From IMG/VR virus record IMGVR_UViG_3300031578_009495, positions 3,128-67,127 of that record: DNA of 64,000 nt. One strand, 5' to 3'. The stretch's first letter is position 1. Each line of letters starts with the position of its first letter. Shown here in pieces: positions 2,686-54,700 of this stretch. The translations under genes were made by a program, and so were the position numbers. The stretch is from a virus. Under the pieces are notes generated by a model. It ran no database searches. It was not told where the DNA came from and saw only the letters and a list, made by a program, of their open reading frames with translations.

Positions 2686-4749
2686 ATGGAAAAGAATACA
2701 GTGTTTTATAAGCATGTAAATGCCAAAGCTGTAATACAAGATGGAAGTCCCATAAATGGGATAATACCAGACACAACGAATCGCTATAGCCAAATAGCCC
2801 AAAACACCACAGACCTAAGACCATTAATAAAATCATTAAACCTGCCGGAAGGCAAAGCTCAAGATCTTATATCGCAGATAGAAACATTGCGTGGAAATGA
2901 GACAGAAATGTTTATGGATATACTCAAAGAATTAAGTGATGGTGGTGAAAGCCAAAGTCTTAATAGTATAGTTAGCGATACATACGATGAGATTCCTGTA
3001 GATATTGAAACATTTTTCAGTAACAGTAACTATCTTGGCAGGGCTGGAGCAGACCTGTATCCTAAGTTAATGGAAGACCTTCTCAGATTGTTTAATGGGA
3101 ACTATACGGAAGTAATTTTAAGTGGAGCGATTGGTTATGGAAAAAGCTATTTAACACAGCTAATAATTTGTAGAATCCTGTATGAAGTCAGTTGTTTGAG
3201 AAATCCACAGTGGGCATACGGCCTTGCAGAAAACTCAACACTATTCTTTCCTAATATATCTGTGACGGAAACACAGGCAAAAAGAGTTATATTTGGAGGT
3301 ATAAAGGAGGCTCTCCGTGTATCACCATACTTTCGAGACCAGTTCCCTTTCGAAATGTATTCAACGGAAATGAAATTCCCTAAAAACATATTACTTGGAG
3401 CCATAGCTATGTCAGGCGCTCTTGGTATGGATGTGTTTGCAGCGGCAATGGACGAAACGAACTTTATGGATGTAGTGGAATCGTCAAGACAGGCCAGGGG
3501 AAAAAAATACGATCAGGCTGAAATAATTTATTCGTCTCTTGCAAGACGAATGAAATCAAGATTTTTAAAAAGAGGTAAGTTGCCTGGGATGCTTGTAATG
3601 CTATCGTCTGTTAACTACCCGAATGATTTTACTGAAAGAAAAAAAGAAGAGGCAAAAGAAAACCCGCTATTATTTGTTCTTGATTATGCACTATGGGAGC
3701 CAAAACCTGCAGGAACATATATGGATGAAAAATTTTGGATAAGCATGGGGACAGAGAACCAGCCCCCAAGAGTGATTGAAGACGAAGAAGAAGCTAAAAT
3801 AGAAATAGAAAGAGGTGTAGAGGTAATTGCACCACCTCTTGATTTCCTTCCTGACTTTAAAAGAGACATAGAGGGAGCGTTAAAGGACATAGCAGGCAAA
3901 AGCAAACTGCTTATTAACAGATTTATTACACAAACCGAAAAGATTTTTGAAAAGATAAACATAAACAGAAAACACCCATTTTCTCAACTACAAACAACGC
4001 TTGTAGATGGTGGTAAGTTTATTAGAGAATTGCTTGCGCATCAAATACCTGGCGCCGAAGGAAGTCCTGTATGGAGACCAATAGTAAGTCCATACACAAG
4101 ACGGTTTGGGCATATTGATCTTGCTGTAACTGGAGATGCGGCAGGATTTTGCATAGGGCATCCTAATGGAGAGATTCAGGTAACAAGAAGGAACGAAAAC
4201 CAGGAATTATATTCAGAGATAATGCCTATAGTTTATATAGATATTATGTTAAAAATTATACCACCGCAAGGGTCTGAAATTAATTTCGGAAATATTCGGA
4301 GTTTGTTATATGAACTACAATCTATGGGTTTTCTTTTTGAAAAAGTTACGCTTGATTCATATCAAAGTGTTGACACTATACAGATATTAAATGGACGCGG
4401 TATAAAGGCTGAAGATCTTTCAGTTGACACGTCTATGGAGCCTTACAATGAAGTTAAAAGTGCATTGTATGAAGACAGGCTTATGATGTATTGGTACGAT
4501 TTTGCATTAGATGAATTAAAAAGTCTTATAGTCTCAAGAAGTGGTAGCAAGGTTAAGGTGGATCACCTGCAAGGAAAGTCGAAAGATGTTTCAGACTGTA
4601 TAGCCGGAGTGGTATATAATTGCGTACAATGGATGCGGAATCCTAAGCGAGCGCCGGCACCTGGTCCAAGCCTGGGATATTTCTCAGGAGATGTTCAGGT
4701 AGAAAAGAAACCGGGAGATCTCGGAGAAGATGATTGGATAGATGGATAG
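2686..4749 (+). CDS. terL: terminase large subunit
   Basis: Walker A SGAIGYGKS, Walker B AAAMDETNF, RNaseH-like nuclease HIDLAVTGDAAGF, VTLDSYQS, DHLQGKSKDVSDCIAG. Confidence 0.9.
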   Translation: MEKNTVFYKHVNAKAVIQDGSPINGIIPDTTNRYSQIAQNTTDLRPLIKSLNLPEGKAQDLISQIETLRGNETEMFMDILKELSDGGESQSLNSIVSDTYDEIPVDIETFFSNSNYLGRAGADLYPKLMEDLLRLFNGNYTEVILSGAIGYGKSYLTQLIICRILYEVSCLRNPQWAYGLAENSTLFFPNISVTETQAKRVIFGGIKEALRVSPYFRDQFPFEMYSTEMKFPKNILLGAIAMSGALGMDVFAAAMDETNFMDVVESSRQARGKKYDQAEIIYSSLARRMKSRFLKRGKLPGMLVMLSSVNYPNDFTERKKEEAKENPLLFVLDYALWEPKPAGTYMDEKFWISMGTENQPPRVIEDEEEAKIEIERGVEVIAPPLDFLPDFKRDIEGALKDIAGKSKLLINRFITQTEKIFEKININRKHPFSQLQTTLVDGGKFIRELLAHQIPGAEGSPVWRPIVSPYTRRFGHIDLAVTGDAAGFCIGHPNGEIQVTRRNENQELYSEIMPIVYIDIMLKIIPPQGSEINFGNIRSLLYELQSMGFLFEKVTLDSYQSVDTIQILNGRGIKAEDLSVDTSMEPYNEVKSALYEDRLMMYWYDFALDELKSLIVSRSGSKVKVDHLQGKSKDVSDCIAGVVYNCVQWMRNPKRAPAPGPSLGYFSGDVQVEKKPGDLGEDDWIDG

Positions 4750-31055: not shown

Positions 31056-31933
31056 ATACGACTAAAGGATATTGCGAATGCGGATGTGGGAAGCTTACGT
31101 CTATGGCTACAAGGAATAATCGCAATAAAGGACTTAAAAAGGGCGAACCAGTCCGCTTTATTCATGGCCATAGCCATATATTTAAGAAAGGTGGTATCCC
31201 TTGGAATAAAGGGAAGAAAGGTGTAATCCCATCTTGGAATAAAGGTAAAAAAGGTGTAATTCCATCTTGGAATAAAGGGAAGACAAAAGAGACCGATAAA
31301 AGAATCATGGAGGCTTCAAAGAAAGTAAGCATTTCAGTAAAAAAATTATGGGAAAATCCAGACTATCAAGGTGGTAACAAAAAAGGAGTTAAGTTTAATC
31401 TGAGCGATGAACAAAGAAAGCAATATTCAGAAAGACTTAGCGGAGAAGGAAACCCTATGTATGGAATGTCGGGAGAGAAATCTCCTGTTTGGAAAGATGG
31501 TATATCTTTTCTGCCATATCCACCTGAATTTAACAATAAGTTAAGACATAAGATTAAAAAACGAGATGATTTTACATGTCAGTTGTGTGGAATAAAACAA
31601 TATACTTATCAGGCAATTCATCATATTGATTATGAAAAAGACAACTGTAGTGAGTCAAATTTAATAACATTATGCCTGTCTTGCAATGTAAAGGTGAATC
31701 AAAATAGAGATTTTTGGAAACAATATTTTACAGAGATAATAAATAAAGGGAGGATAGAATTATGGACGCGTACCCAAAATTCGGTATCTACTACTAAAGG
31801 CGCCGAATTAAAACCTCTTCTGAATAACGGGAAGGTCTTAACATGTAAAGATGAAGATAACCCGAGGCAAGCCAAGGCAAATGCCTTGTTGCAGCCGCAG
31901 AGCACTGAGCGAAGAGGAACCTTAACAGGTTAA
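31040..31933 (+). CDS. free-standing HNH homing endonuclease with NUMOD3-like repeats, overlapping exon 1 and the intron
   Basis: PSWNKGKKGV repeats, GNPMYG, RDDFTCQLCG, AIHHIDY..NLITLCLSCN. Confidence 0.88.
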   Translation: MDWNMNTTKGYCECGCGKLTSMATRNNRNKGLKKGEPVRFIHGHSHIFKKGGIPWNKGKKGVIPSWNKGKKGVIPSWNKGKTKETDKRIMEASKKVSISVKKLWENPDYQGGNKKGVKFNLSDEQRKQYSERLSGEGNPMYGMSGEKSPVWKDGISFLPYPPEFNNKLRHKIKKRDDFTCQLCGIKQYTYQAIHHIDYEKDNCSESNLITLCLSCNVKVNQNRDFWKQYFTEIINKGRIELWTRTQNSVSTTKGAELKPLLNNGKVLTCKDEDNPRQAKANALLQPQSTERRGTLTG

Positions 31934-32751: not shown

Positions 32752-33030
32752 ATGTCCTACTCAAAAGTAATAGAACCGGCTATTAAAACAAGGCGCGTAA
32801 ATGCAATGCCTCTTATAGGTGGTGCCGGTGTAATCCAGGAATTGGGATATATACAAAAAAAGACGCATAGATTTTTCTGGATTACAACGGCAGAATTGCA
32901 GGCGGAAATAGATACTGAGGTTGCCTTAGGATGGGTTTTGGACGGAGATCCAAGCAGAACGCTTGTCCATGAAGCAATTCCTGATCTGTTTAATGCCGAG
33001 GCTACTTATTTTAGGTACAGCGCTACGTGA
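32752..33030 (+). CDS. hypothetical tail-module protein
   Basis: 92 aa; SD AGGTG. Confidence 0.55.
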   Translation: MSYSKVIEPAIKTRRVNAMPLIGGAGVIQELGYIQKKTHRFFWITTAELQAEIDTEVALGWVLDGDPSRTLVHEAIPDLFNAEATYFRYSAT

Positions 33031-33689
33031 AATTAAAAGAAAGGAAATTTATGCAGGCAGAAAAAATAGAGATACCAGATGAGCTCAGGATATTAAACCC
33101 AGAGTTACAAAAAAAACCAGTAGTAATAGGCACAGAAGCCTACATGATTTATCCGTTAACTGAAGGACAGGCCGAGCGTGTGTCTAAGCTTTTGTCTGAT
33201 GTTATAATAGACATCACGACTTTGGATATGCAATGCCCTAATTGTAAACATGTATTCCAGAATATGCTTGGACGACAGGAAACCTGCAATAGATGTAGGG
33301 TAAAGGGGAAGGGTGGAAGTCAATTAAAAAGTATGCAAAAACCACCCGTAGAAGCATTGACATACGAAGACCGTGTTCCGAGATTAATTGAAGAACTCGT
33401 TGGAATTAAAGTCACGGATGTAAAATCATCTTTGACCGTTAATCAGTGCAAACACATTGCAGGTGTTTTATATGTCCAGAACTTTATGGAAGAAGAAGGC
33501 GGCGGCTTGCCGGAAGAATCAAAAAAAAACTTCAAAGCACTGCTGAATTGGATAAGTCCGGAGGAGAAAGAAAACACAGTAGTAGCCTCGGAGAAATCTA
33601 TGAAGCCTTTGCCCATGAATATGGATTTACAAGAGAATATATCCAGGGAAGATGGGAGACAGGAGGAAGTAACGGAAGACGGCTTGTAG
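33027..33689 (+). CDS. tail assembly chaperone (G-like) with CxxC..CxxC insertion
   Basis: position before tape measure; slippery A AAA AAC at 33524-33530. Confidence 0.65.
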   Translation: MKLKERKFMQAEKIEIPDELRILNPELQKKPVVIGTEAYMIYPLTEGQAERVSKLLSDVIIDITTLDMQCPNCKHVFQNMLGRQETCNRCRVKGKGGSQLKSMQKPPVEALTYEDRVPRLIEELVGIKVTDVKSSLTVNQCKHIAGVLYVQNFMEEEGGGLPEESKKNFKALLNWISPEEKENTVVASEKSMKPLPMNMDLQENISREDGRQEEVTEDGL

Positions 33690-34249
33690 GGCTCACAAGG
33701 CCGCTCCTAAAGTTATATTGGAAGTATTTACAGCAACGCAAGCTTGCAGAGCTTAAAATGCAGATTAGGCTTGCTGGTGGAACGGTACCGGAAGACACTG
33801 AAGCGGAACTCAAATCAGCAGAAGAGGAAGCCATGGAAAGGTTAAAAAATCCGCTTAAAGATTTTCCAAATGATATTAAGTATTTTTCTGCGAATGAATG
33901 TATAAGTAAAATAGAGATAGGTGGACGGTTTAAGGGTAAGATAGCAAAAGAGAAGATCTGGGATAAAAAAAGAATGAACGCCTGCCTTGGGAAACATGGC
34001 ATTGTGGCAAAACGATGTTCGATGAATGATACGTTGTGGGCCAGATATACAAAACATGGTGACTCTCTGACGTTGGATATAATAAAACAGATGATGAAAT
34101 TTGATGCAAAAAGAAGAGAGCTTTATCCACCCAACTATAAGGGTACCGGCGAGGAACAGCCACCGGCAGAATACCTTGAAGAATTGAAATCATCCGGCAA
34201 GCTTGATACAATATACAAAGAAATGAACGAACTTTCAAATTTAGATTAG
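33524..34249 (+). CDS. -1 frameshift extension of the chaperone (GT-like)
   Basis: ORF 33446..34249 is in the -1 frame; LGEIYEAFAHEYGFTREYI typical of T-segments. Confidence 0.6.
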   Translation, partial: KKLQSTAELDKSGGERKHSSSLGEIYEAFAHEYGFTREYIQGRWETGGSNGRRLVGLTRPLLKLYWKYLQQRKLAELKMQIRLAGGTVPEDTEAELKSAEEEAMERLKNPLKDFPNDIKYFSANECISKIEIGGRFKGKIAKEKIWDKKRMNACLGKHGIVAKRCSMNDTLWARYTKHGDSLTLDIIKQMMKFDAKRRELYPPNYKGTGEEQPPAEYLEELKSSGKLDTIYKEMNELSNLD

Positions 34250-34280
34250 TCGCTCCCGATGTGGTGGCATGGATTGAAAC
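34249..34280 (+). CRISPR. solitary, degenerate type I-C-like CRISPR repeat (no array)
   Basis: GTCGCTCCCGATGTGGTGGCATGGATTGAAAC, 32 nt, same ends as the repeat at 54501. Confidence 0.65.
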
Positions 34281-34292
34281 GAGGAAACAATA

Positions 34293-37160
34293 ATGGCAAG
34301 TCAATTCGGAATACGATTTTTCACTTCAGGCTATGAAAGAACAAGCGGTCAAATGGCGTCTATAGGAAGACAGGCCAGTGGGATAAGTACAGGATTTCTA
34401 CGAATGGGAAGGACTGGCGCTTCATCTGGCACAATGGCTGCGGGCGGAATGAGAATTTTAAGCTCCGGAATGTCTGGCGCTATGAGCGTGATGAGAGGAT
34501 TTATTAGTCTAACCATAAGGGCTACAACCGTACTTGCCACTGTTGGCGCCGTAGTTGCTGGAGTCGGGATAGCCCTTGCTACAAAGTTTGCAAAAGGATT
34601 AATGGCTACAAGGGAGAGTTTTTATTTAATAGAGACAGCCCTTACTGGAGTTGTAAAAAATGCTGGGCAGGTGCAAAAGATTTCGGATTGGGCAATGAAA
34701 TATGCAGCAACATATCCTGCAATGTATGGGGACGTTATGGATACGATGAAGGGATTATCAATGATGCCCTCCTTAAAGCCTATGTTCGTTAAGGGCGATG
34801 TTGCTGCCATGGAAAAGGTAATGAATATTGTCCAGAGTCTTGCCGCGATGGACCCACAGCAGGGCGTAAAGGGAGCTCAGCTTGCGATGAGAGAAGCATT
34901 ATCTGGCAACTGGAGGTCATTGCAGATGCGGTTTGAGCTAAGACCGCAGGCGGTTGCTGAAGCGGCAGGGCTGTCAATGGAAGAGTTAAAGACAGACCCT
35001 GGCAAGGCTATCGAGGCCCTGGACGCCTTTACCCGCCTGAATGTTGGGGCAGACACACTTAGGAAGTCAGCAGAAAGTCTCGGTGTTCAATGGGGCAACC
35101 TCGGGGATAAATACGATATATTTTTGAATAAGATAGGAAAGATGGGAGCATATAGAAGGCTTGTCGAATTCCTTATGAAGATGAATGATATGTGGGATAA
35201 GCTTTTGGAAAGTGATGCCGCACAGAAATTTGGTCAAAACATTTCAAGTATATTTGAAAGTGTAATTGGGTCAGTTGAATCAATTATGACTGGAATTGAT
35301 TGGGAGGGTAAGGGAATATTCGATGGTATTATTGAAGCAGGCAAGAAAGCAATGGAAAAACTCCGTAATTTGTTTTTAGATGCAAAGGATTTCCTTGCTT
35401 CTGCCATGAAATTGGTTTTTGTATATATAAAAATGGCCTTAATTTTTTCCATTAAGGAAATCTTTTTCCCTGTTGGAAAGATGATTGCTGAAACAATCGG
35501 TAATGCTTTCATGGAGACCATCCGGGCACATCCTATGCTGGCTTTTATGGCCGCTTTGGTAGGTGGAACGATAATGGGTGGTCTTCCAGGTGGAATTGTA
35601 GCTGGTGGGGCAATGGCTGTAACTTTGGCTGCGCAGGGAACAGGTTTAATAGGAGCGCCAGCTAAATCAAAAGAAGAGTTGATTGCTGAGAAGAAAGCCG
35701 AAATAGAACGAGTACAGAATAAGAAATTTAGAACCCCGATGGAAAGAGTTGAATTTTATGGTAATCGCAATCGGAGGAAGAATCTGGAAAATCTCAAAAC
35801 TGAGTTGGAAGAATTAGAAAAACTGCCGGCTACAAGTAAGTTTTCAGATGCAGATGCAGCTTTAGCAAAATTAAAAGCCGACGCAAAAGCTTTAAAACAA
35901 TTATGGGGCACAGGGCTTGGGCTTGGGACTGGAGACGCGACAAAGGATCCAACCGCTGTAGGTGAAGCAGCAAAAAGGGTAGTTGCGGCACGATCAAGCT
36001 TACGGCTTGCGGAACTTACTGGCGCCAAATCCATGGTAGATGTTTTAAAGGAGCAATTACAATATGAAGAAAGACTTTTGGATTATCACCAAAAAGCTGC
36101 CACATGGGAAAAAGGTCCGACAAAGGGAGTTAGAGAGGCAGAGTTAAAAAAGGAGATAGCAACATTAAAAGAAACGATGTCAATATCCATCGGTAAGGGC
36201 GTAACCCGTAAAGATCCTGCCCTAATTGTCATGGAGGAGAAACTTGCAACAAAACAAATAGAGGCTGAAAAACTTAAAAAGGCAAAAACAACCGAGGTAG
36301 GAGATATAACACGATATACAGGAGCCGAACTCGCAGAAAAAGCAAGAGTTTCTATGGAAAAAGAGAAAAACATCCTGGCTCAAACATTAGCTGTTGAAAC
36401 ACAAATTGCAAAGTTAAAGAAAGAGGGTGGGGAAGATGTAAGTATGCTCGTAGACCTTGAAACCAAGTTGCTTGATTTATCAAAACAAAAAATAGCAATT
36501 GAGCAACAATACACAAATGCAAAAAAACAGCAGGTTGGCTTGCAAAGTCAGATCCAGACAATGGAAGTGCAAAAAGGACTTAGCGCTCTTGATTTAACGA
36601 AGGGAATGTTTCAGACCTTTGGAAAATTTGTAGGTAAACAGGGACGTTATGGCCAGGTTGGAGGAGCTAAAATGCCTGGAATGGGTAAAATGTCGTGGGG
36701 AACGGGCGTGGAAAAATCCACAGGCTATAGAACAAAAGGCATTCCAAAGTTTCTCTTAAAACAAGAAGAAGTGTTAAAAGAAAAGCTTGGGCAAGCAGGC
36801 ATATCTGATGTAGTAAAAAAGTTACTTCTTGAAAAGTTGCATGGCATAAACGTAGAACAGTTTCAAATGGCTAAGGGAGGAGTTGCAAAAGGAGCTCAGT
36901 TTCTTGAGGCTAATAAATTTATGGAGCAATTGCAGGCTGTTGATACTAAACTTCAGGAAGAACAGATCGCGCTTGTGAAAGAGCAAGCTGGGAATATTGC
37001 AAAAATGGTTGTTGAGCTTAAATTGACAAACCAATGGTTGTCTGGAATCAATGGAAAGGTTGGTGGTACTGGCTCGCAGCCTAACGCAACACCTGCATCT
37101 TTAGGAAATAAAAAAATTGGCGAAGCAAATCCATCGACAGCGCCATCTGGTGCATTTTAA
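34293..37160 (+). CDS. tape measure protein
   Basis: 955 aa, Ala/Gly-rich N-terminus, ETALTGVV..SDWAMKYAATYPAMYGDV tape-measure domain, coiled coils. Confidence 0.85.
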   Translation: MASQFGIRFFTSGYERTSGQMASIGRQASGISTGFLRMGRTGASSGTMAAGGMRILSSGMSGAMSVMRGFISLTIRATTVLATVGAVVAGVGIALATKFAKGLMATRESFYLIETALTGVVKNAGQVQKISDWAMKYAATYPAMYGDVMDTMKGLSMMPSLKPMFVKGDVAAMEKVMNIVQSLAAMDPQQGVKGAQLAMREALSGNWRSLQMRFELRPQAVAEAAGLSMEELKTDPGKAIEALDAFTRLNVGADTLRKSAESLGVQWGNLGDKYDIFLNKIGKMGAYRRLVEFLMKMNDMWDKLLESDAAQKFGQNISSIFESVIGSVESIMTGIDWEGKGIFDGIIEAGKKAMEKLRNLFLDAKDFLASAMKLVFVYIKMALIFSIKEIFFPVGKMIAETIGNAFMETIRAHPMLAFMAALVGGTIMGGLPGGIVAGGAMAVTLAAQGTGLIGAPAKSKEELIAEKKAEIERVQNKKFRTPMERVEFYGNRNRRKNLENLKTELEELEKLPATSKFSDADAALAKLKADAKALKQLWGTGLGLGTGDATKDPTAVGEAAKRVVAARSSLRLAELTGAKSMVDVLKEQLQYEERLLDYHQKAATWEKGPTKGVREAELKKEIATLKETMSISIGKGVTRKDPALIVMEEKLATKQIEAEKLKKAKTTEVGDITRYTGAELAEKARVSMEKEKNILAQTLAVETQIAKLKKEGGEDVSMLVDLETKLLDLSKQKIAIEQQYTNAKKQQVGLQSQIQTMEVQKGLSALDLTKGMFQTFGKFVGKQGRYGQVGGAKMPGMGKMSWGTGVEKSTGYRTKGIPKFLLKQEEVLKEKLGQAGISDVVKKLLLEKLHGINVEQFQMAKGGVAKGAQFLEANKFMEQLQAVDTKLQEEQIALVKEQAGNIAKMVVELKLTNQWLSGINGKVGGTGSQPNATPASLGNKKIGEANPSTAPSGAF

Positions 37161-54081: not shown

Positions 54082-54492
54082 ATGTTTGTTAATCCGACAG
54101 GTTTGAGTATTAGAAATGATTCTAAAGGTTTGGGACATCATGGAGCTCCGAGAGGTTTAAGAAAACATAACGGAATAGATCTTCTCTGCACTCCTAACCA
54201 ACCTATTAAAATGCCAGTAGCTGGTATTATCGTAAGAGAATCCTTACCATACAAAGATAACTTAGAATGGAGGGGAGTTCATATCGTTTCGGATAGAATA
54301 GAACTAAAATTATGGTACTTTTTACCGGATTTGAATTTAATAGGTTCTTATGTACGCCTTGGAGATATAATTGGATATGCTCAGGATATAAGTCGAAAGT
54401 ATTCCGGAGTTCTCCCTCACGTGCATTTACGGGTTGTTACAGTCGATCCGATGTTAATTTTTTTTAATGAAACAGGTTTTCTTTCGAAATAA
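54082..54492 (+). CDS. M23-family peptidase (endolysin candidate)
   Basis: HNGIDL (HxxxD) and HVHL (HxH) zinc motifs. Confidence 0.82.
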   Translation: MFVNPTGLSIRNDSKGLGHHGAPRGLRKHNGIDLLCTPNQPIKMPVAGIIVRESLPYKDNLEWRGVHIVSDRIELKLWYFLPDLNLIGSYVRLGDIIGYAQDISRKYSGVLPHVHLRVVTVDPMLIFFNETGFLSK

Positions 54493-54500
54493 CAAACTGC

Positions 54501-54532
54501 GTCGCTCCCGCATGGGGAGCGTGGATTGAAAC
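54501..54532 (+). CRISPR. solitary type I-C CRISPR repeat (no array)
   Basis: GTCGCTCCCGCATGGGGAGCGTGGATTGAAAC; stem GCTCCC/GGGAGC; canonical GTCGC...GTGGATTGAAAC ends. Confidence 0.82.
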
Positions 54533-54538
54533 GAACAT

Positions 54539-54700
54539 CTGACATATTCCCACGGTTAAAACACGTGGGGTTCTAACATAGAACCAAAGTTTGTGGTTTT
54601 TAAACCACATCAGGCCGAGCTTTCTAACTCAGTCCGGCTTAAAGCCGAGGCATATCAGTGTGCCTCTTGAGATTGAGCGTTTAGCCCAACCTCAGCGATG
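54539..54700 (-). ncRNA. TnpB omegaRNA scaffold (5' boundary approximate)
   Basis: structured region overlapping the tnpB 3' end through the right end; conserved in the second copy at 43109-43206. Confidence 0.65.

Follow-up and report, generated by a model that had tools for sequence, protein, structure and literature searches.

Solitary repeat units (SRUs) are intergenic CRISPR-repeat-like sequences of viruses with neither a further repeat within about 100 bp nor cas genes next to them (Faure 2019; Camara-Wilpert 2023, PMC10651486), and viral SRUs act as RNA anti-CRISPRs (Racrs; Camara-Wilpert et al. 2023, PMC10651486). The type I-C example RacrIC1 is found 11 nt behind acrIC5, shares a transcript with this gene and inhibits the I-C system (PMC10651486). 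I-C repeats are substrates of Cas5c, whose cut falls behind G21, where a 7-bp stem ends on its 3′ side (PMC8524198, with Nam 2012 and Garside 2012 cited therein). The enzyme relies mostly on U22-G23-G24 and the 3′ overhang for recognition, responds neither to the loop nor to the 5′ overhang, and after cutting remains on the 11-nt handle within Cascade (PMC8524198). Here we analyse a 32-nt I-C repeat-like unit at position 34249 of a 64,000-nt stretch of viral DNA (the window; positions 3,128 to 67,127 of IMG/VR record IMGVR_UViG_3300031578_009495). The window lies inside a 94-kb contig of an uncultured soil virus which is about 52% complete, and it carries a further, intact solitary I-C repeat at 54501. 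We suggest, with roughly even confidence, that the 34249 unit is a second, diverged Racr-type solitary repeat, which would serve as a decoy with at least residual activity.

The first base of the unit is the G of the TAG stop codon (34247–34249) of an upstream chaperone-like open reading frame (ORF), and the unit fills the 43-nt intergenic gap ahead of a 955-aa ORF with tape-measure-like features. GAGGA (34281–34285) follows directly, and the ATG (34293) stands 12 nt behind the 3′ end of the unit. This is the place, between the chaperone stop and the tape-measure ribosome-binding site (RBS), where the initial annotation had noticed a degenerate I-C repeat. Its description of the unit as equal in length and ends to the 54501 repeat but with an imperfect stem is accurate as well: the first 10 and the last 11 bases of both units are identical, with 7 differences among the 11 bases in between (25/32 in total), and the predicted minimum free energy is −6.2 kcal/mol (z = 0.0 against shuffled sequences) for the 34249 unit and −14.3 kcal/mol (z = −3.0) for the 54501 repeat. 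Both stand in the same orientation just behind a stop codon; apart from the seven positions, the 54501 repeat differs in its perfect 7-bp stem. As 25/32 is no closer than the match between unrelated I-C repeats, the unit as a recent copy of the 54501 repeat was rejected.

A chance resemblance, which the initial annotation had held to be unlikely, can be ruled out. When the nine 5′ and the eleven 3′ bases common to both units were combined into a search pattern, exactly two matches (34249 and 54501) were found in the window and none in 100 dinucleotide-preserving shuffles. No third match was found in the 94-kb contig, in which the two units are 20 kb apart.

The sequence of the unit is that of the I-C repeat family, whose members are 32–33 nt long (about 37 nt in some families), begin with GTCGC and end with (G)TGGATTGAAAC; the repeat type which we take as matching is GTCGCTCCC...GGGAGCG. 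Canonical I-C repeats collected here agree with the unit at 23–28 of 32 positions and with each other at 23–31, so that with a best value of 28/32 its primary sequence is not an outlier. Like an SRU the unit is intergenic, has no second repeat within reach and no cas genes beside it; judged from the best identity of 28/32 it would probably fall below the cut-off of SRUFinder (bit score of at least 41.1). No array of a true repeat family with the 3′ arm of the unit was found in representative species genomes. The 18-mer GGTGGCATGGATTGAAAC of the unit occurs there at nine unrelated sites, all of them single and none in an array, and a bona fide family with this arm was therefore rejected. A 20-mer of the 3′ arm has zero matches in viral contigs. 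The 8-mer ATTGAAAC occurs 11 times in the whole window (4.9 expected; 2 of 100 shuffles reach 11), ten times on the plus strand, and outside the two repeat units no repeat-like sequence stands upstream of it.

In comparison with RacrIC1 and other SRUs, the unit is likewise a single repeat mimic in an intergenic position with no cas genes nearby, a few nucleotides behind a co-oriented gene, and it shares their I-C sequence and the 11-nt handle. Unlike RacrIC1 it has a degenerate stem (z = 0) and an A at repeat position 21, it belongs to a late structural operon with no adjacent acr gene and it abuts directly on the tape-measure RBS; its membership among the Racrs is judged from sequence alone. 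Similarly, it resembles a Cas5c substrate in its length of 32 nt, in the 5′ GTCGC and in the 3′ handle UGGAUUGAAAC with U22-G23-G24, and differs from it where the substrate has a 7-bp stem, a pentaloop and G21, as the window unit forms at best 5–6 pairs, wobbles included, with C3 facing A21.

The history of the unit can be read from its relatives, which were found by searching with the tape-measure and chaperone proteins and are contigs of related uncultured phages; one tape-measure protein search gave no relative among viral contigs. In at least eight more distant relatives the unit is absent and the chaperone stop overlaps or abuts the tape-measure start. In one of them, a soil contig with 82% identity (X2 record 8), the chaperone tail runs straight into a TAGTG stop/start overlap. 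Thus, the unit is an insertion. In the window the stretch GAGGAAAC...TAATG behind the unit is, by alignment with the unit-less relatives, the remnant of the ancestral chaperone 3′ end and of its overlapping stop and start codons.

Four close relatives carry another allele at the same place, which we call Form A and in which some 20 nt separate the chaperone stop from a 38-nt unit that has the ends of an I-C repeat. The allele of the window is referred to as Form B. One Form A contig (L053) ends just inside the unit. The soil contig X2 record 9 differs from the window outside the junction by one letter over about 450 nt and has 27 extra nucleotides at the junction. Since such a near-identical genome carries Form A, the 32-nt form of the window must be a very recent replacement of a patch of roughly 50 nt, whose right edge lies inside the repeat, at the letters ATG. 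No donor of the Form B patch was found, the left junction of the window being without a match in IMG/VR, and a search of IMG/VR with the pattern of the 38-nt form gave no further alleles; the sample of alleles is small, four or five in total.

Table 1. Coordinates of the unit, its neighbours and the corresponding junctions in related contigs (window positions unless a contig is named)
Feature	Position or contig	Strand	Basis and remarks
32-nt type I-C CRISPR-repeat-like unit (Form B allele)	34249–34280	+	25/32 to the 54501 unit, at most 28/32 to other canonical I-C repeats
Intact 11-nt I-C 5′-handle TGGATTGAAAC, including U22-G23-G24	34270–34280	+	Sequence; PMC8524198
A at repeat position 21 (canonical G21, after which Cas5c cuts)	34269	+	Sequence; cut site from PMC8524198
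Weak hairpin region	34249–34268	+	Shifted register G1-C20 −6.2 kcal/mol, canonical register −4.9; z = 0.0 against shuffles
Shine-Dalgarno sequence GAGGA, 7-nt spacer and ATG of the tape-measure-like gene	34281–34295	+	Alignment with unit-less relatives
Intact solitary I-C repeat (reference for comparison)	54501–54532	+	Perfect 7-bp stem, −14.3 kcal/mol; weak CRISPR-DR9 match
Form A carriers	L023 (95% nucleotide identity), L038 (84% upstream, 70% downstream), L053, X2 record 9		
Unit-less relatives	L024, L025, L026, L028, L054, L055, one Logan contig (no DNA), X2 record 8		
Form A short ORF	L023:2930–3003; L038:1311–1384; L053:1880–1902 (start only)		Intact in L023 and L038
Tape-measure-like protein, 955 aa	34293–37160	+	Language-model features nearest to TMP_3, TMP_2 and PhageMin_Tail clusters
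Putative frameshifted tail assembly chaperone, two overlapping ORFs (33027–33689 and 33446/33758–34249)	33027–34249	+	−1 frame, A9 run at 33521–33529
Sigma-70-like site TTGAAA-17-TACAAT with TG (extended −10; 10/12)	34184–34212	+	About 35 nt upstream of the unit, within the chaperone gene

From these data we suggest the following course of events. In the common ancestor of a few phages from soil and groundwater, which form a small clade, an I-C repeat would have come to lie between chaperone and tape measure, replacing the last few chaperone codons and breaking the ancestral overlap of stop and start. As the unit stands in the sense of the late tail operon, its RNA would have the orientation of a CRISPR RNA (crRNA). 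Host Cas5c would then bind the intact UGG and the 11-nt handle and perhaps cut at the base of the hairpin, and Cas proteins would be tied up on phage RNA, away from the crRNAs of the host. The intact 54501 repeat would be the main decoy of the phage. In the window allele the hairpin is weak and an A occupies the cut-site position, so that it is probably an attenuated decoy, or one in partial decay. Transcription of the unit, its binding by Cas5c and any anti-CRISPR effect are what we infer from these features; the sequencing runs listed for this stretch comprise four of DNA, present as contigs, and none of RNA. The proposal of the initial annotation that the unit may be a second decoy RNA appears reasonable.

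What speaks for a retained function is the pattern of change between the alleles. Between the two Form A contigs L023 and L038, whose flanks agree at 84% and 70% of positions, there are nine differences in 75 nt of the junction, seven of them in the stem–loop, and the 22 nt before the unit together with its first nine bases differ at one position only. In the helix predicted for three sequences 86% of the cells are paired and one pair has changed from A-U to G-C. In L023, which was found by protein homology and not via the handle, the handle is intact. The altered position 21 is not peculiar to the window, as an A is also found there in the otherwise intact solitary repeat of another phage (L014), and SmuCas5c tolerates the changes C20G, G21U and G23U (PMC8524198). 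Given that UGG and handle are kept and that A21 and a weak helix are present, binding of the window unit by Cas5c is plausible and its cleavage uncertain.

Nevertheless, a number of observations weigh against a working decoy. The hairpin of the window unit is no better than that of a shuffled sequence; with G21 replaced by A the closing C3-G21 pair is gone, and processing by BhaCas5c is reported to be sensitive to changes at the stem's base (PMC8524198). Rfam gives no match to the unit even at E<=10, its CRISPR models being blind to it. The covariance analysis of the junction, which the initial annotation had recommended, does not help, as 330 of 500 shuffles do as well as the observed three sequences and the covariation is not significant. 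L038 was found by a pattern requiring the handle and the Shine-Dalgarno sequence, so that the conservation of the handle in this contig is an effect of ascertainment. The relatives without the unit show that it is dispensable, and a decoy, which should act early, is strangely placed in a late structural operon. A sigma-70-like site upstream of the unit (Table 1), kept in L023 and weaker in L038 and L053, is a lead only, as the number of promoter-like sites in the region is not above that in shuffles. Finally, neither Cas5d nor Cas7 was matched in the 94-kb contig, an absence which is not proof in a contig about 52% complete, and phage-borne copies of the two proteins were set aside as candidates.

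How far the window unit has departed from the other copies can be judged from the folding energies in the canonical register, which are −10.0 kcal/mol for the L023 allele, −7.9 for the L038 allele and −4.9 for the window allele, the weakest hairpin of the family. The stable 7-bp stem with a loop of 4–5 nt and C3-G21 closure is not found in it. Scores with the Rfam model CRISPR-DR9 are 19 bits for the 54501 repeat (E 0.079), 15.9 for L038 and 12.9 for L023, all far below the gathering score of 45; nothing in the window reaches a gathering score in Rfam. The L038 unit aligns end to end, stem included, with this 37-nt model. The deficit of the window unit lies in stem compensation and not in primary sequence.

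These properties have to be weighed against another explanation, namely that the unit is a non-functional relic, either a piece of a CRISPR array of the size of a spacer plus a repeat or the solitary repeat of another phage, which recombination brought into this junction and which is now decaying, the 32-nt form of the window being a further step of erosion or of patchy recombination. We regard this as possible, if somewhat doubtful. It accounts for a hairpin at chance level, the loss of G21 and the absence of the unit from many relatives. With about 69 nt, the insert of the long allele has roughly the length of one I-C spacer-plus-repeat period. Its centre is unstable, as genomes with flanks about 99% identical differ there by indels of 6 and 20 nt. 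The site also tolerates junk, since at this very spot L038 has an extra insertion, of about 190 nt and accompanied by a duplication. Against mere decay, the unit persists in backgrounds that have diverged by 16–30%, with its ends conserved and the hairpin kept and partly compensated, and the handle is retained in every copy seen, including the one in L023. The initial annotation had named a non-conserved junction, together with a lack of cleavage or Cas binding, as the sign of a decayed array remnant. As to the junction, the unit is kept within a small clade, absent outside of it and unstable in its centre, so that the picture is mixed.

The extra stretch in L038 (L038:1100–1320), of about 190 nt, lies between the chaperone stop and the Form A unit and has no match in Rfam; on its borders some 25 nt of the chaperone 3′ end are duplicated (with the core ATGGACGAACTTTCGA). 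The junction between chaperone and tape measure looks like an insertion hot spot. Two further observations on sequences resembling the unit are added here. A 644-nt contig (record 2 of run X1, compared with window positions 34249–34286), from what is probably the source sample of the window, begins with an I-C-like repeat with 6 differences in 38 nt and goes on with GAGGAA-CAA-ATG...; it may represent a solitary repeat before an RBS and start codon or an array spacer. The 19-mer GAATGAAGAATTCAGTCGC, which comprises the Form A 5′ flank and the start of the unit, is found in three related contigs of giant-virus metagenome-assembled genomes (L056:10473–10491, L057:414–432 and L058:5309–5327). In two of the three it is preceded directly by the 8-mer AAATGCAG, which is shared as well. 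In these contigs the 19-mer stands at the border of a conserved block, behind which a run of ten A follows. By a rough estimate about one chance match is expected and the context is unrelated; we therefore set this link aside as a probable coincidence.

A different role had been put forward in the initial annotation, according to which the phage may use host Cas5c as an mRNA-processing enzyme: a cut before the Shine-Dalgarno sequence would uncouple the tape-measure mRNA from the upstream genes and so tune its expression. The unit does end exactly at the Shine-Dalgarno sequence, Cas5c would leave a 5′-OH handle fused to the tape-measure RBS (PMC8524198), and other phages also place I-C repeats 4–29 nt before start codons. 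However, such positions are ordinary for this class of elements. Among viral contigs solitary I-C repeats of this sequence type are frequent, with exact matches in 20 stretches, the majority of which have a single copy, and several intact ones lie between co-directional genes, also in the other, unrelated phages with this 4–29-nt spacing. In L016 the repeat abuts the stop codon and the start follows 22 nt behind, and L006, L008 and L010 are similar. The placement between stop and start is thus by itself not evidence for tuning of the mRNA. Moreover, the ancestral and commonest state is a translationally coupled overlap with no repeat, which at least eight relatives keep, and the window allele, with the weakest hairpin and A21, is the poorest predicted substrate. 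As Cas5c stays on the handle and nucleates Cascade (PMC8524198), it would cover the RBS rather than free it, and the scheme needs a host factor that is absent from many hosts. We consider this proposal, which we found unsupported, quite unlikely.

One might also think of an element that acts in cis and has nothing to do with Cas proteins, the origin from a repeat being incidental. The hairpin, in the long allele together with a short ORF ending in TAATG, would then set the ratio of chaperone to tape-measure translation or the stability of the mRNA. This Form A ORF of 20 codons (MKNSVAS...WIETRK-Q/R) reads through the repeat, and its TAA stop overlaps the tape-measure ATG. L023 and L038 have it complete and L053 contains its start, and the hairpin is maintained through different 5′ arms. 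Frame and overlap are the same in L023 and L038, but 6 of the 20 residues differ, so that it is not conserved as a peptide; furthermore the ORF has no clear Shine-Dalgarno sequence and is missing from the window allele, in which its start is lost. As the retention of the I-C handle would also be left unexplained, we believe that such an element is quite unlikely. In a more novel reading the repeat mimic would be retained on the RBS of an essential late gene of low copy number as a Cas-dependent, riboswitch-like sensor and would be more than a decoy: in hosts whose I-C system is active, the loading of Cas5c or Cascade on the handle would couple tape-measure translation to the state of CRISPR immunity of the host, and the 32- and 38-nt alleles would then be tuned to different I-C repeat families of the hosts. 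This we hold to be very unlikely.

Degenerate repeats that still recruit Cas proteins have been described in the Cracr/CreA/CreR systems, with I-C examples among them (Liu et al., bioRxiv 10.1101/2024.10.29.618823), and in this respect the psi repeats of these systems are like the unit. They are, however, organised as repeat-spacer-repeat, and their spacer matches the promoter of a cas or toxin gene. The present unit consists of a single repeat, the ‘spacer’ is the pre-existing RBS and start region of the phage, and no second (psi) repeat was found one spacer length to either side of the unit. A related thought is that the handle and the following roughly 34 nt, with the Shine-Dalgarno sequence and the start of the tape-measure gene, form a crRNA-like guide against rival phages without the insertion, the carrier being safe as the repeat occupies the position of the protospacer-adjacent motif (PAM). 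This ‘spacer’ is indeed conserved in sister phages. Against this reading, there is no downstream repeat or hairpin that could form the 3′ end of an I-C crRNA, the ‘spacer’ is older than the repeat, and in none of the relatives inspected does a TTC PAM stand in register, their PAM-proximal bases being different as well. We regard such a weapon with a single guide as extremely unlikely and discarded it for the lack of a PAM or seed match in these relatives.

Around the intact 54501 repeat two more features were noticed. A degenerate repeat-like 32-mer (54442–54473, plus strand), which starts with GTCGATCCGATG and ends with AATGAAAC, is found within the ORF 54082–54492, 27 nt upstream of the repeat and oriented like it. 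It agrees at 15 of 22 outer positions, a score no better than chance over the genome, and from its position it is possible that it is the decayed partner repeat of a former mini-array. On the minus strand Rfam reports an RNA of the HgcC family at 54526–54642 (25 bits, E 4e-4), which lies downstream of tnpB and fits a tnpB omega RNA. As the 3′ end of this match overlaps the last 7 nt of the 54501 repeat, a natural TnpB guide would be complementary to the I-C handle region.

The two genes that flank the unit have no match in Pfam or PHROG. The chaperone-like ORFs, which lie in frames 0 and −1, overlap around a stretch of nine consecutive A, as known from chaperones of the G/GT type, and the order of chaperone and tape measure is conserved in all relatives examined. 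The two labels are thus reasonable and plausible from sequence features, though not proven. Further upstream, a segment of roughly 710 nt with a gene for an HNH endonuclease (31058–31768) is missing from the closest relative (L023:412–457), in which the flanks are 95–98% identical; it fits a mobile HNH or intron cassette in the region of the major tail gene.

Our finding extends the class of elements described in 2023 and opens no new one; what it adds is the insertion polymorphism and the two alleles. If the unit is active, two different I-C repeat mimics can occur together in one phage, much decay of the stem is compatible with such a mimic as long as the Cas5c handle remains, and mimics can sit in structural operons, where they escape SRU finders that require high identity. 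If it is inactive, the junction represents a dated case of phages gaining and losing pieces of CRISPR arrays. In addition, the junctions with no unit, with the 38-nt allele and with the 32-nt allele, sometimes in near-identical genomes, provide a natural series for the minimal requirements of an I-C decoy.

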